Positions 1 through 3,346 of a DNA stretch of 3,346 nt are shown piece after piece (within the stretch, counting starts at the first letter, position 1; the number at the start of each line of letters is the position of its first letter). Both the position numbers and the translations under genes were made by a program. Under the pieces are notes generated by a model, which searched no databases, was not told the DNA's origin, and saw nothing but the letters and a program-made list of their open reading frames with translations. The DNA comes from a virus (Duplodnaviria; Heunggongvirae; Uroviricota; Caudoviricetes): the IMG/VR virus record IMGVR_UViG_2529292726_000026; one strand, written 5' to 3'.

Positions 1-612
1 ATGGCAGCAGTAAAAATCTCAGGTGTGCTGAAAGATGGTGCGGGAAAACCAATACAGAACTGCACTATTCAACTGAAGGCAAAGCGTAACAGCACCACGG
101 TACTGGTGAACACGGTGGCCTCTGAAAATCCGGATGAAGCCGGGCGTTACAGCATGGATGTTGAGCATGGCCAGTACAGCGTCACCCTGCTGGTTGAAGG
201 TTTTCCGCCTTCACATGCCGGAACCATTACCGTCTATGAAGGTTCCAGACCAGGTACGCTGAATGATTTTCTCGGTGCCATGACGGAAGATGATGTCATG
301 CCGGAGGCATTGCGTCGTTTTGAGGCAATGGTGGAAGAAGCGGCACGCAACGCCGAAGCCGCCTCTCAGAGCGCAGCGGCGGCAAAGAAATCCGAAACTG
401 CAGCGGCATCATCGAAGAACGCGGCGAAAACCTCAGAAACGAATGCAGCTAACAGCGCACAGGCGGCAGCGTCCTCGCAGACTGCATCGGCAAACTCCGC
501 GACAGCAGCCAAAAAATCAGAAACCAACGCGAAAAACAGCGAGACAGCCGCAAAGACGAGCGAAACCAACGCAAAGTCCAGCCAGACGGCAGCGAAGACC
601 AGCGAAACGTAA
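1..612 (+). CDS. stf: Side tail fibre protein, N-terminal fragment (lambda Stf-like proximal domain followed by Ala/Ser/Thr-rich fibre repeats); ends at TAA 610-612
   Basis: Seen: ATG at 1, open in frame 1 to TAA 610-612. The first ~110 aa (MAAVKISGVLKDGAGKPIQNCTIQLKAKRNSTTVLVNTVASENPDEAGRYSMDVEHGQYSVTLLVEGFPPSHAGTITVYEGSRPGTLNDFL...) closely match the N-terminus of lambda Stf as recalled from memory. From about aa 120 onward the product is low-complexity KTSETNAK / AAKSSQ-type repeats typical of the Stf family. The length (203 aa) is far too short for a fibre, so this is a fragment. Confidence 0.8.
   Translation: MAAVKISGVLKDGAGKPIQNCTIQLKAKRNSTTVLVNTVASENPDEAGRYSMDVEHGQYSVTLLVEGFPPSHAGTITVYEGSRPGTLNDFLGAMTEDDVMPEALRRFEAMVEEAARNAEAASQSAAAAKKSETAAASSKNAAKTSETNAANSAQAAASSQTASANSATAAKKSETNAKNSETAAKTSETNAKSSQTAAKTSET
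553..608 (+). repeat. 56-bp direct repeat, copy 1 (55/56 identical to 747-802)
   Basis: Seen: aagacgagcgaaaccaacgcaaagtccagccagacggcagcgaagaccagcgaaac. The single mismatch is c567 versus t761. Read in frame 1 it encodes KTSETNAKSSQTAAKTSET. Confidence 0.9.
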
Positions 613-614
613 GC

Positions 615-2354
615 GTGCAGCAAGAACCAGTATTGACGGCGAAAAATAGCCAGAATGCAGCAGCCGAAAGCGAGAGCGCGTCAGCCGGTTCTGCGACTGC
701 AGCAGCTGGATCAGCAACTGCTGCGGCTAACAGCCAGAAAGCAGCGAAGACGAGCGAAACTAACGCAAAGTCCAGCCAGACGGCAGCGAAGACCAGCGAA
801 ACAAATGCCAAAGCCAGCGAAACTGCGGCGAAAAGCAGTCAGGATGCAGCAGCCGAAAGCGAGAGTGCTGCAGCTGGTTCTGCAAGTGCGGCGGCTGCTT
901 CTGCCACTGCATCAGCAAACAGTCAAAAAGCTGCAAAAACCAGTGAAACCAATGCAAAGACAAGCGAGACTGCAGCGGCGAACTCGGCGCAAGCATCGGC
1001 AGCAAGCCAGACAGCAGCTAAAGCAAGTGAGGATGCAGCCAGAGAGTATGCAAGCCAGGCAGCAGAGCCGTATAAATATGTCTTACAGCCACTGCCTGAT
1101 GTGTGGATACCGTTTAACGATTCACTGGATATGCTTGCTGGCTTTTCGCCTGGTTATAAGCAAATAACTGTAGGTGATGATGTTATTAAAATGCCATCCG
1201 ATAAGGTTGTTAGCTTCAAACGCGCATCAGGTGCAACATACATTAATAAATCAGGTGTATTAACCGTTGCTGAAGTTGACGAACCGCGATTTGAACGAGA
1301 AGGTTTGCTGATTGAAGGACAGAGAACAAACTATTTCAGAAATTCAAATACACCAGAAGCATGGAATAACACGGGTAGTGTGTCTGTTGAGTCGTTCGAC
1401 AGTGATAAGGGGTTTAACTATGGAAGGATAACTGTTATTAATGAAAATCCGACAGCACAAGGATATCAGGCAATTGCTGTAAACACGAATGATGCTTACA
1501 CCTGCCCGGCAGGTTCTTATACGACGATATCGTGTCTGACGAAAAGTGATAATTCCCGGTGTCGTGCAAGGTTCGGAAAAATGTCTGATAATGGTGCGTT
1601 TGTTTTTCATTCAGATGCAGCTCTGGATCCTGTTACGGGAAATGTTGTTCATGGAAATAATGTGACGGTGACGGCAGAAAGAGTCGGTGAATGGTGGTTG
1701 TTTACCGCCACTCTTTTTGCAGATGCGGAAATGATAATCAGCTCAAGATTTGAAATCCTGGCGATGCCTGGAATCAGTATTATCCCCAATGGCTCTACGT
1801 TAGATATTGCGATGCCTCAGGCGGAGATTGGGTCGTACAGGACGTCATTTATCATTACTGAAGGGGCTCCTGGCACTCGCTCCAGCGACATGGTGACAAT
1901 ACCTGTAAGAAACAATATTCACCGATTACCATTCAGTGCTCTTGTTGAAGTTAATAAAAACTGGGATATCCCTCCCAGCAAATCACCATTAATCTTTAAT
2001 GTTAAAGATTATCAGGAAAATGGTCTGTTCACGCATGGATTCCGTGGTAATAATTTCTCTGATGCCGGTTCTCCTTTTATTTCTATGGGAGGGTGTAATA
2101 AATATGTGGCAACAACCCAGAGGAAAATCATTTCAGGCTTCCGTTGTGGCGCTGATGGAGATGTTCAGGCCGTATGTAATGGTGAATTATCTGTTGCGGC
2201 AAAAACAACATGGACTTCAATTGTTCCACGGGCAGTATTGCGAATTGGAGGGCAGGGCACTAATGGGGAGTATCATCTTTTTGGTCATATCCGTAATCTG
2301 CGTATCTGGCATAAAGAATTAACTGATGCGCAAATGGGGGAGAGTATTAAATGA
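615..2354 (+). CDS. Side tail fibre protein, C-terminal fragment (fibre repeats, then distal receptor-binding region with LamG/ConA-like C-terminus); start codon uncertain
   Basis: Seen: frame 3 is open from upstream of 615 to TGA 2352-2354. Translation from about 640 continues the same repeat family as the first fragment (AKNSQNAAAESES...NSQKAAKTSETNAK). No ATG or convincing Shine-Dalgarno precedes it; GTG 615 is simply the first possible start, 2 nt after the upstream stop. The C-terminal residues (...GEYHLFGHIRNLRIWHKELTDAQMGESIK) resemble the terminal strand motif of LamG/concanavalin-A-like lectin domains (recalled motif, not searched). Confidence 0.7.
   Translation: MQQEPVLTAKNSQNAAAESESASAGSATAAAGSATAAANSQKAAKTSETNAKSSQTAAKTSETNAKASETAAKSSQDAAAESESAAAGSASAAAASATASANSQKAAKTSETNAKTSETAAANSAQASAASQTAAKASEDAAREYASQAAEPYKYVLQPLPDVWIPFNDSLDMLAGFSPGYKQITVGDDVIKMPSDKVVSFKRASGATYINKSGVLTVAEVDEPRFEREGLLIEGQRTNYFRNSNTPEAWNNTGSVSVESFDSDKGFNYGRITVINENPTAQGYQAIAVNTNDAYTCPAGSYTTISCLTKSDNSRCRARFGKMSDNGAFVFHSDAALDPVTGNVVHGNNVTVTAERVGEWWLFTATLFADAEMIISSRFEILAMPGISIIPNGSTLDIAMPQAEIGSYRTSFIITEGAPGTRSSDMVTIPVRNNIHRLPFSALVEVNKNWDIPPSKSPLIFNVKDYQENGLFTHGFRGNNFSDAGSPFISMGGCNKYVATTQRKIISGFRCGADGDVQAVCNGELSVAAKTTWTSIVPRAVLRIGGQGTNGEYHLFGHIRNLRIWHKELTDAQMGESIK
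747..802 (+). repeat. 56-bp direct repeat, copy 2 (55/56 identical to 553-608)
   Basis: Seen: aagacgagcgaaactaacgcaaagtccagccagacggcagcgaagaccagcgaaac. Read in frame 3 it encodes the same peptide as copy 1. Confidence 0.9.
2336..2344 (+). promoter_or_regulatory. Shine-Dalgarno (GGGGGAGAG) for ORF 2351-2632, inside the 3' end of the fibre gene
   Basis: Seen: purine-rich GGAG core at 2339-2342, 8 nt before ATG 2351; the stop and start overlap (ATGA). Confidence 0.6.
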
Positions 2355-2632
2355 AAGATTTAACACTCAAATTTGCAGACAGGGCCGACTTTTCGGCCTT
2401 TATGGAGAGTATTGGCTATTATGATGACGAGTCGATGCAGGATGATATTCTTATTGACGTGATAGGTAACGTGTACAAAGAAACCGGAGAACTGACTGAA
2501 GATGGCGAACCGGTATGTGTTAAGGAAGACGGATATTTTGTAAACGTGCGCATCATTAATGATGCAAAAAAATCGTCAATATTCGATAAATACGCGGTTG
2601 TTGTTGAGCATCAACTTCGTGGCTGGATGTGA
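2351..2632 (+). CDS. Hypothetical small acidic protein (93 aa), translationally coupled to the tail fibre gene
   Basis: Seen: ATG 2351-2353 overlaps the fibre stop TGA 2352-2354 (ATGA). A GGGGGAGAG Shine-Dalgarno lies at 2336-2344, about 8 nt upstream. Open to TGA 2630-2632. The product is Asp/Glu-rich with no family I recognise. Position between two fibre-related genes suggests a structural or assembly role (inference). Confidence 0.65.
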   Translation: MKDLTLKFADRADFSAFMESIGYYDDESMQDDILIDVIGNVYKETGELTEDGEPVCVKEDGYFVNVRIINDAKKSSIFDKYAVVVEHQLRGWM

Positions 2633-2638
2633 GGGAGA
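2631..2638 (+). promoter_or_regulatory. Shine-Dalgarno (GAGGGAGA) for ORF 2642-3346
   Basis: Seen: GGAG core at 2634-2637, 4 nt before ATG 2642; overlaps the TGA stop (2630-2632) of the upstream ORF. Confidence 0.6.
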
Positions 2639-2641
2639 CAA

Positions 2642-3346
2642 ATGGCTACATCGACAGTAATTCCAGGAGATATCACCACGCTAAAGGGAGATGTCAGTAA
2701 AACTAAGGAAGATATTTCCTCAATTAACGGAAAAGTATCAACGCTTCAGACTGATATGACCAGTGCAAAGCAGGATATCAGCACCAGATACACAAAAACT
2801 GAAGTTGATAATAAGCTGAAAAACAAACTGGAAGTGAATGCTCTGGAAAGCGGTAATTATGGTGGAGATTTTTACCCGCTGACTGGCCGTGAAGCATTTT
2901 ATTTATGGAATTTGGGCACGACTACAGCGGCGGCAAACCTTTATCTTAATCCTGACCCTGCAATTTCGTCTGTACTGCGGTCAACATCGTCTATTCGCTA
3001 TAAACATTCAGTAGAGACGATAGATTCAGAGCACGCCGATCTCATTTTCAGGATGCGCCCTGTGTGGTACAGGTCGCAATGCGAAAATGACAGGCGTGAC
3101 TGGGGATTCTATGGATTGATTGCCGAGGAAGTAGGAGAAATTGCCCCTCAGTTTGTTCACTGGCGACCAGCTAACGAAGATGATGCACCGGAAACCATTT
3201 CCAGCAATGGCCTTGTTGCCGAAGGTGTAATGTACGAACGTCTGGTTGTTCCACTGATTCACCATATCCAGAAACTGACTGAAAGAGTTGATGAACTTGA
3301 GTCAGAATTAAAGTTGTTATTAACTTCCCGAAGCGATATTAGATAA
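2642..3346 (+). CDS. Tail fibre domain-containing protein with C-terminal peptidase S74 intramolecular chaperone domain (234 aa)
   Basis: Seen: ATG 2642 preceded by GAGGGAGA (2631-2638), which overlaps the upstream stop; open to TAA 3344-3346. The N-terminal ~65 aa are heptad-like and polar (GDITTLKGDVSKTKEDISSINGKVSTLQTDMTSAKQDIS...). The C-terminal ~110 aa (SSIRYKHSVETIDSEHADLIFRMRPVWYRS...GFYGLIAEEVGEIAPQFVH...NGLVAEGVMYERLVVPLIHHIQKLTERVDELESEL) follow the recalled S74 / endosialidase-chaperone pattern, including a Ser-x4-Lys dyad at S116 and K121. Confidence 0.85.
   Translation: MATSTVIPGDITTLKGDVSKTKEDISSINGKVSTLQTDMTSAKQDISTRYTKTEVDNKLKNKLEVNALESGNYGGDFYPLTGREAFYLWNLGTTTAAANLYLNPDPAISSVLRSTSSIRYKHSVETIDSEHADLIFRMRPVWYRSQCENDRRDWGFYGLIAEEVGEIAPQFVHWRPANEDDAPETISSNGLVAEGVMYERLVVPLIHHIQKLTERVDELESELKLLLTSRSDIR
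2987..3316 (+). other. Peptidase S74 (intramolecular chaperone, auto-cleaving) domain within CDS 2642-3346; putative catalytic Ser codon 2987-2989, Lys codon 3002-3004
   Basis: Motif-level comparison to endosialidase C-terminal chaperone domains (catalytic Ser-Lys dyad in an SDRRLK-like context; here SSIRYK), followed by a GLIAQEV-like segment (here GLIAEEVGEIAPQFV) and a C-terminal helix. Domain boundaries are approximate. Confidence 0.7.

Follow-up and report, generated by a model that had tools for sequence, protein, structure and literature searches.

The side tail fiber gene (stf) of phage lambda lies downstream of J and lom, and its product has an N-terminal PF08400 domain and a shaft of Ala/Ser/Thr-rich repeats of the KTSETNA type. 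In laboratory lambda (lambda PaPa), a frame lesion in the shaft splits the gene into two open reading frames (ORFs), while the gene of Ur-lambda is intact. The lesion is a single-base deletion, as Hendrix and Duda reportedly described in 1992. Fiber variation by DNA rearrangement is also known from Gin/Cin/Pin invertible segments and from slipped-strand contingency loci, with frame-shifting tracts of 1-8 nt. In laboratory lambda, stf carries a frameshift mutation, and the side fibers are dispensable for plaque formation (PMC12617516).

The locus analyzed here is a window of 3,346 nucleotides that carries the side tail fiber gene of a lambdoid prophage; its source is a draft assembly of E. coli 2875150 (GCA_000356245.1, contig accession APXK01000151.1). 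It shares with lambda the N-terminal domain, the shaft repeats, and the position in the tail region. PF08400 (Prophage tail fibre N-terminal) was found by Pfam at residues 3-132 of the intact allele (E=1.9e-66); the window is identical to that allele over these residues, and PF08400 is also listed for its 203-aa product. The contig begins 108 nt 5' of stf, and the position relative to J and lom is known from homologous loci: the order gpJ - lom - (IS200C) - stf - 93-aa gene - 234-aa tail-fiber-domain protein was found in four of them (L005, L006, L008, and L009). The C-terminal receptor-binding domain, in contrast, differs from that of lambda, and DNA similarity to lambda-type phages stops near position 1365. 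An intact stf would be a single unbroken ORF that joins the N-terminal anchor, the shaft, and the C-terminal receptor-binding part. The window copy is not, because of a TAA at 610-612 and a +5 frameshift. The following genes and gene parts are present:

1-612, plus strand: 5' part of stf, truncated, 203 aa, ending at the stop of an IS remnant (ORF list).
615-2354, plus strand: 3' part of stf, a 579-aa ORF from GTG in frame 3 (ORF list).
2351-2632, plus strand: 93-aa gene that starts in an overlap with the stf stop (ATGA), part of the conserved fiber cassette and outside the lesion.
2642-3346, plus strand: 234-aa tail-fiber-domain protein with a Peptidase_S74 chaperone domain (PF13884, E=4.9e-6).

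The split gene is a pseudogene, consisting of a 203-aa N-terminal fragment (exact product ENB13935.1, E. coli 2875150) and an unanchored 579-aa ORF (product ENB13936.1) that contains the remaining shaft repeats and then the C-terminal receptor-binding region; in this it parallels the frameshifted and dispensable gene of laboratory lambda. A Pfam search with the 93-aa gene gave no match, and homologues of the last gene are annotated as tail fiber domain-containing protein. Minus-strand ORFs over the repeats (366-623, 449-811, and 760-1005) probably arise only from the GCN codons of the Ala-rich repeats, and nothing marks them as genes.

To describe the lesion, the window was aligned to the intact alleles L001 (782 aa) and L002 (781 aa). 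Within the shaft, these differ from the window only at 610-636 (+5 nt) and by SNPs at 597 and 681; outside it, position 1169 differs, and L002 adds a few allele-specific changes. Over 615-2354 with the patch excluded, L001 and the window differ at two bases (681 and 1169). In all, 31 nt at 609-639 replace 26 nt of stf, for a net gain of 5 nt. The features of the junction are as follows:

601-608, plus strand: surviving copy of an 8-bp target site, AGCGAAAC, the same octamer found at both ends of the IS in strain 510016 (locus L005).
609-639, plus strand: solo-end remnant of an ISEc22-like (IS66-family) element, GTAAGCGTGCAGCAAGAACCAGTATTGACGG, matching the IS end at 30/31 nt.
610-612, plus strand: in-frame TAA stop, read directly in the sequence and supplied by the conserved IS terminus GTAA.

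As a possible refutation of its own proposal, the sequence-only reading had named a gene simply broken by a point indel. The gene is indeed broken, but a point indel is ruled out, since the alignment gives a clustered 28-nt replacement and no single-base change. In this respect the window also departs from lambda, where the lesion is described as a frameshift mutation rather than a 31-nt IS66-family remnant in place of 26 nt. The patch begins with the IS terminus GTAAGCG, has the IS66-type terminal inverted repeat, and can be written as the IS end plus one extra base, GTAAGCGTGCAGCAAGAACC(A)GTATTGACGG, where A629 is the base that the other IS copies examined lack. Its last three nucleotides (CGG, 637-639) are a microhomology common to the IS end and stf, and the right junction of the scar reads GTATTGACGG directly followed by CGAAAAATAG. 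The window has no IS coding sequence (tnpA, tnpB, or tnpC); all that it has is 31 nt from one end, which makes the patch a remnant or scar and not an element. The extra A at 629 is one of two private changes close to the junction, the other being a G>T at 681; both fall within 75 nt of it and could reflect error-prone repair or poor sequence quality. According to Han et al. (2001), GTAA termini are said to be typical of the IS66 family; a full-text literature search for GTAAGCG with IS66 returned nothing directly usable.

A full-length element at the same place identifies the source of the patch. When a 53-nt query over the patch was used, one stf gene matched, that of strain 510016 (95.6%, E=6e-10), and the match falls exactly on the junction of stf with an annotated ISEc22 element. 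In this strain (NZ_CP025851.1, L005), a full 2454-bp ISEc22 begins at the very nucleotide where the patch of the window starts: the sequence runs through AGCGAAAC into the element, from GTAAGCGTGCAGCAAGAACCGTATTGACGGGGATG to CGCTTAC, and then into AGCGAAAC again, an 8-bp duplication around the IS. The full copies in L005 and L010 both have the ends GTAAGCG...CGCTTAC and carry tnpA, tnpB, and tnpC. Across 5426 complete E. coli genomes, the IS end matches the patch at 30/31 nt in 5207 places (2346 genomes); among the best junction matches, it adjoins annotated ISEc22/IS66 transposase (ISEc22 tnpC), and in gpU of strain E2865 the same end borders an ISEc22 copy that is independent of this one.

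These matches also bear on a different origin, by gene conversion, in which the divergent 28 nt would have been copied from another stf paralogue or shaft unit with an imprecise join. E. coli genomes do hold several stf paralogues (a median of 2 matching places per genome and up to 14), the allele in the window is mosaic, and part of the patch (GCAGCAAG.CCAG) loosely resembles 997-1009. However, apart from the junction in 510016, the patch occurs in no stf gene among the best matches in the 5426 genomes, while ISEc22 ends match it at 30/31 nt in thousands of places, and it starts with GTAAGCG at the exact nucleotide of the full IS in 510016. These results effectively refute a copy of another stf repeat or paralogue, and we give gene conversion almost no credence.

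We consider it very probable that stf was inactivated by insertion of an IS66-family element and that a deletion of about 2.46 kb then left the scar. An ISEc22-like element would have entered the Ala/Ser/Thr-rich shaft repeats after position 608, with AGCGAAAC duplicated as its target. At the 3-nt CGG microhomology, about 2458 bp would later have been lost by illegitimate deletion: IS nucleotides 31-2454, the right-hand copy of the target, and 26 nt of stf adjoining it. Where those 26 nt had been, the gene would keep the 31-nt IS end, made up of 30 nt and an extra A. Its frame is thereby shifted by a net +5, and an in-frame TAA is read from the IS terminus GTAA. The 8-bp target duplication is seen for the full copy in 510016; the window has the left copy only, because the right one would lie inside the deleted segment. 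The sequences show directly what the patch is, where the element inserted, and that intact alleles exist with two in-frame copies or with one unit; we infer that the insertion preceded the deletion and that the deletion was a biological event, not an assembly error.

The insertion in strain 510016 thus shares with the window the gene, nucleotide, orientation, target octamer, and IS end (30/31), but it retains the entire element and both target copies, whereas the window has one end and has lost 26 nt of stf. The 108 nt 5' of stf are identical in the source contig and in 510016, and the two prophages are therefore linked. Outside the patch, however, the window stf differs from the IS-bearing allele by about 40 SNPs, and the IS-free L001 is closer. 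A shared ancestral insertion would consequently require a subsequent recombination event, the alternative being two separate insertions at one site.

The scar allele was seen once, with both truncated products on one contig only. In the 5426 complete E. coli genomes, the scar sequence or its right junction did not occur, and exact-pattern scans for the patch or scar junction found none in GTDB species representatives, metagenome contigs, or viral contigs. As the source is a draft assembly, an assembly or sequencing artifact at the IS has to be weighed, in which stf of the strain would be either intact or occupied by a full IS and the patch would be a product of the draft assembly. Short-read assemblies classically run into trouble at IS copies, an IS200 boundary 108 nt upstream of stf is where this contig ends, and the extra A and a private SNP sit near the junction. 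On the other hand, the overlap at the right junction is 3 nt (CGG), far below what a graph-based mis-join needs, and a further 34 nt that are unique, the target copy and the 26 nt of stf, would also have to vanish. The contig has no Ns across both flanks, and with a full IS here one would normally expect a broken contig, not a collapse to 31 nt. We regard an artifact as unlikely.

The interruption lies between two near-identical stretches of the shaft, and from these the sequence-only reading had proposed a recombination-prone site acting as a reversible ON/OFF or length switch, in which a 194-bp deletion would turn the fiber gene ON. The stretches belong to the following units:

553-608, plus strand: repeat copy 1, start of shaft unit A, its right edge cut by the IS insertion point.
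747-802, plus strand: repeat copy 2, start of shaft unit B, 55/56 identical to copy 1.
747-935, plus strand: shaft unit B, 189 nt (63 codons), a tandem duplicate of unit A (offset 189 in intact L001).

Much of what had been read from the repeats was borne out. The copies agree at 55/56 positions at an offset of 194, with a sole C/T mismatch at 567/761; each encodes KTSETNAKSSQTAAKTSET, the first in frame 1 and the second in frame 3, with the TAA between them. Joining 1-608 to 803-2354 gives 2160 nt, or 719 codons plus a stop, with zero internal stops, so that a deletion between the copies would restore the ORF. The repeat is far from chance expectation: the longest direct repeat (with at most one mismatch) within 340-1079 is 56 nt, compared to a mean of 13.5 and a maximum of 18 nt in 100 dinucleotide-preserving shuffles.

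The intact alleles place these copies in a different light. Both L001 and L002 keep the two copies 189 bp apart and in frame, together with an in-frame version of 609-746, which is what the sequence-only reading had expected of a gene that is simply broken. Nor does high identity mark out a special site, as the copies are just as similar in the intact alleles (54/56). The 56 bp are no natural unit either; in the intact alleles, the near-identical tract extends to about 640 and sits within a 189-bp tandem duplication, whose units A and B are 162/189 identical in L001. In the window, unit A spans 553-746 and is 194 nt long owing to the +5 scar, and a repeat search returned spacings of 194 and 189 for the family that holds the two copies. 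The tandem periods of the shaft are 21, 42, and 189 nt. Every one is a multiple of 3, and the 194-bp offset therefore exists only through the scar, being the normal in-frame 189 bp plus 5 nt. The two 56-bp repeats are the best-conserved beginnings of ordinary 63-codon shaft units arranged in tandem, and the break falls between them only because unit A is where the IS inserted.

For a switch, it can be said that the frame arithmetic is correct, that unit loss and gain occur over evolutionary time, and that the rescued protein would probably fold. But the interruption is an IS remnant, and repeat dynamics alone cannot shift the frame when each period is a multiple of 3. Loss of the segment from one copy to the other would also remove the scar permanently, making a return to OFF impossible, and the OFF state was found in one assembly only. 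Neither a dedicated recombinase ORF nor relevant or flanking inverted repeats were found in the window by ORF list and repeat search. The likeness to Gin/Cin/Pin segments and contingency loci is accordingly one of general idea only: the window has no invertase, flanking inverted crossover sites, or alternative C-terminal exons, and its units of 21, 42, and 189 nt contrast with the short tracts of contingency loci. A switch is thus highly improbable. A pinQ recombinase lies near a homologous cassette in L007.

Variation in the number of shaft units is in frame. Among complete E. coli genomes, 113 have a match over at least 80% of the gene; the matches listed (40 of 113) are 99.0-99.3% identical, and the closest intact alleles among them are about 99.9% identical to the window outside the patch. 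In addition to the two-unit alleles L001 and L002, natural one-unit alleles, with exactly the shaft that the deletion would leave, are intact in L006 (735 aa) and L007 (738 aa), as unequal recombination or slippage between copies would be expected to produce. Like the proposed deletion, this polymorphism changes the number of units; unlike a switch, it is evolutionary and alters shaft length, not expression. RefSeq feature tables gave the impression of a frequent split of stf among related strains (CFT073 and AR_0067), but there the DNA is an uninterrupted 799-codon ORF, and the split is an annotation quirk.

In E. coli, direct repeats of ~50 bp that are ~200 bp apart undergo deletion at low frequency through slippage that does not depend on RecA. 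The near-identical 63-codon units might form a built-in rescue route, in which a lesion inside one unit, here the IS scar, is excised precisely by slippage or recombination with a neighboring unit and a small subpopulation of this strain carries a repaired 719-aa stf; we view this as unlikely. If true, it would give a shorter functional fiber like that of the one-unit alleles, by one-way reversion and without a switch.

The significance of the locus lies mainly in correct annotation: the split stf is a pseudogene and not a phase-variable fiber. The IS terminus itself provides the stop codon here, a past IS66-family insertion can be recognized from a short orphan GTAAGCG... sequence, and a repeat offset that is not a multiple of 3 within an in-frame array is a quick sign of a foreign insert. 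The one-unit and two-unit alleles found side by side are an ordinary length polymorphism of prophage side fibers.

The interrupted gene in the window belongs to the Stf family, the side tail fibres of lambdoid prophages, and this copy is a pseudogene. Its 5' ORF carries the Pfam domain PF08400 'Prophage tail fibre N-terminal' (E=1.9e-66, scored on an intact allele), the region resembles stf genes of lambda-like phages and prophages, and the gene region has a match in 4845 of the 5426 complete E. coli genomes searched. Homologous loci are ordered gpJ, lom, stf, and then genes for 93-aa and 234-aa proteins, and the same two genes occupy the remainder of the window 3' of stf:

2351-2354: ATGA, overlap of the stf stop and the start of the next gene, within the cassette at 2351-3346
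within 2351-3346: 93-aa product, no Pfam match
within 2351-3346: 234-aa product with a Peptidase_S74 (endosialidase chaperone) domain

By exact-protein look-up, the window was traced to contig APXK01000151.1 (assembly GCA_000356245.1, E. coli 2875150), whose positions 109-3454 it matches without a difference; the deposited entries for its two ORFs are ENB13935.1 and ENB13936.1. The cassette of stf followed by genes for 93, 234, and 97 aa recurs in several chromosomal settings: beside appY/ompT, dacD, and pinQ/ydfK elsewhere, and beside an ABC-3/ZnuA transporter operon in the source contig.

The repeats reported by the sequence-only reading, and its frame arithmetic, are correct. The segments 553-608 and 747-802 share 55 of their 56 bases and are offset by 194 nt; each encodes KTSETNAKSSQTAAKTSET, the former in frame 1 and the latter in frame 3. 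The ORF from ATG 1 (frame 1) ends at TAA 610-612, and frame 3 has no stop between 615 and TGA 2354; fusing 1-608 to 803-2354 yields 2160 nt, or 719 codons plus a stop, free of internal stops. The repeat is far above chance expectation: within 340-1079, the longest direct repeat allowing a single mismatch measures 56 nt, whereas 100 dinucleotide-preserving shuffles gave at most 18. Minus-strand ORFs at 366-623, 449-811, and 760-1005 (81-120 aa) lie antisense to the shaft repeats, and we regard them as a side effect of the Ala-rich GCN codon repeats and not as genes.

In 113 complete genomes, a match takes in 80% or more of the gene. The best 40 of the matching records are 99.0-99.3% identical to the window gene, and almost all of these matches are 2349 nt long (2343 nt for those beginning at query base 7), 5 nt fewer than the 2354 of the window. 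In strains ECCWS199 and E. coli C, stf is a single ORF of 782 and 781 aa, respectively. When aligned outside the patch at 609-639, the window differs from the ECCWS199 allele only at 597, 681, and 1169, and from E. coli C at a few more positions, one of them a 3-nt indel at codon 2; beyond these, it differs from both only in 610-636. Both intact alleles retain the two repeat copies, in frame and 189 nt (63 codons) apart, the arrangement that the sequence-only reading had set as refuting its switch idea in favour of a gene simply broken by a point indel. A point indel is nevertheless rejected as the cause, as the 31 nt of 609-639, GTAAGCGTGCAGCAAGAACCAGTATTGACGG, stand in place of 26 nt, GAATGCCAAAGCCAGTGAAACTGCGG, of the intact alleles. 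In AR_0067 and CFT073 (3109-5508 of loci L008 and L009, respectively), RefSeq divides stf into a partial pseudogene and separate 'head spike fiber' or hypothetical proteins; since the DNA reads through as a single 799-codon ORF, the split comes from the annotation and is not a lesion.

A sensitive search with 598-650 returned one stf match, in strain 510016 (95.6% identity, E=6e-10), which stops exactly where an annotated IS66-family ISEc22 (tnpA, tnpB, tnpC) interrupts the gene. The element is 2454 bp long, with ends GTAAGCG/CGCTTAC and an 8-bp target duplication, AGCGAAAC; its junctions read ...ACCAGCGAAAC / GTAAGCGTGCAGCAAGAACCGTATTGACGGGGATG and GACGACGCTTAC / AGCGAAACGAATGC... The patch consists of the first 30 nt of this IS end with one extra A at 629, and begins at the identical stf nucleotide. 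Among complete E. coli genomes, 2346 contain the 30-mer, at 5207 places in all; in the best junction matches it adjoins an annotated ISEc22/IS66 transposase gene, and it also borders an independent ISEc22 copy within the gpU gene of strain E2865. Taken together, the 30-nt match, the shared start, and the transposase-adjacent copies identify the patch as the solo end of an ISEc22-like element, a remnant of an IS66 element and not an element itself. Gene conversion from another stf as the source of the patch is rejected, since among the best matches in 5426 complete E. coli genomes the only stf gene with this sequence is that of 510016, at its ISEc22 junction. The stop codon arises because the gene's AC and the IS terminus GTAA read ACG TAA.

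We infer that insertion followed by deletion is the most likely history. An ISEc22-like element would have inserted after 608, and a later deletion of ~2458 bp would have taken out IS nucleotides 31-2454 together with the second target copy and the adjoining 26 nt of stf. Its breakpoints would lie in a CGG microhomology of 3 nt (IS ...TTGACGG / GGATG, stf ...ACTGCGG / CGAAAA), and the net outcome is +5 nt. The scar allele occurs once, in a draft assembly, and two private changes (the extra A at 629 and G>T at 681) lie no more than 75 nt from it, as an assembly artefact might produce. However, such an artefact would have had to lose 34 nt of unique sequence at a junction sharing only 3 nt, and we consider it unlikely.

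The source contig opens with 108 nt (1-108) ahead of stf, and their identity to the counterpart in 510016 links the two prophages. An IS200C transposase gene lies just upstream of that stretch in 510016, as it does in AR_0067 and CFT073, whose matches also begin at query base 1. Its position in 510016 would explain why the draft contig starts there; the contig probably broke at an IS200 copy. Outside the patch, the window stf has 3 differences from the IS-free ECCWS199 allele and ~40 from the 510016 allele, with the SNPs at 597 and 1169 common to the latter. The gene is a mosaic, its body nearly identical to the ECCWS199 allele (appY/ompT site), and 597, 1169, and the upstream flank matching 510016. 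This pattern of differences weighs against simple shared ancestry of the insertion, and either stf paralogues recombined after insertion or the IS struck this position on two occasions. Two independent ISEc22 copies were examined, and in each ...AAAC adjoins the same GTAAGCG end (4004-4018 of the 510016 locus, in stf, and 3004-3018 of the E2865 locus, in gpU), which hints at a target preference; if true, repeat insertion at the stf site would be less surprising.

The truncated products ENB13935.1 and ENB13936.1 occur in one contig only among ~15 billion proteins, and searches for the scar sequence or its right junction found no copy in the 5426 complete E. coli genomes, GTDB species representatives, metagenome contigs, or viral contigs. 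A full IS at the scar site was found in one complete genome; this ISEc22 in stf of 510016 is the closest relative of the window lesion, which keeps only the remnant. Other one-off lesions of the gene exist: in strain PKF8 (NZ_CP156813.1), for example, the same stf allele has taken an independent hit from a 768-bp IS1 in the C-terminal domain (5091-5858 of its locus) with a 9-bp flank overlap (target duplication) at window 2087-2095. The closest precedent is laboratory lambda, which has a frameshifted stf and can do without its side fibres (PMC12617516).

The two shaft units of the intact allele form a 189-bp tandem duplication (162/189 identical), with a near-identical tract from ~553 to ~640 (roughly 20/21 per 21-nt window). 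The 56-bp length was therefore fixed by the IS insertion point and is not due to a special recombination module. Tandem periods in the shaft are 21, 42, and 189 nt, each a multiple of 3, so unit gain or loss can make the shaft longer or shorter but cannot shift the frame; the offset of 194 changes frame because the scar adds 5 nt to the 189. Recombination between the copies would, as proposed, restore a continuous frame, and its product would be a plausible fibre, but the scar would be erased irreversibly. With both copies in frame in intact alleles and the interruption an IS remnant on a single contig, a programmed reversible ON/OFF switch is not supported and appears highly improbable. There is no new kind of system here, but a correct observation with an over-interpreted mechanism. 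Intact one-unit alleles exist naturally (L006, 735 aa, and L007, 738 aa), and aligning their shafts to the hypothetical recombinant shows precisely the 63-aa unit to be missing. Unit gain and loss is, therefore, a real evolutionary polymorphism of the stf family.
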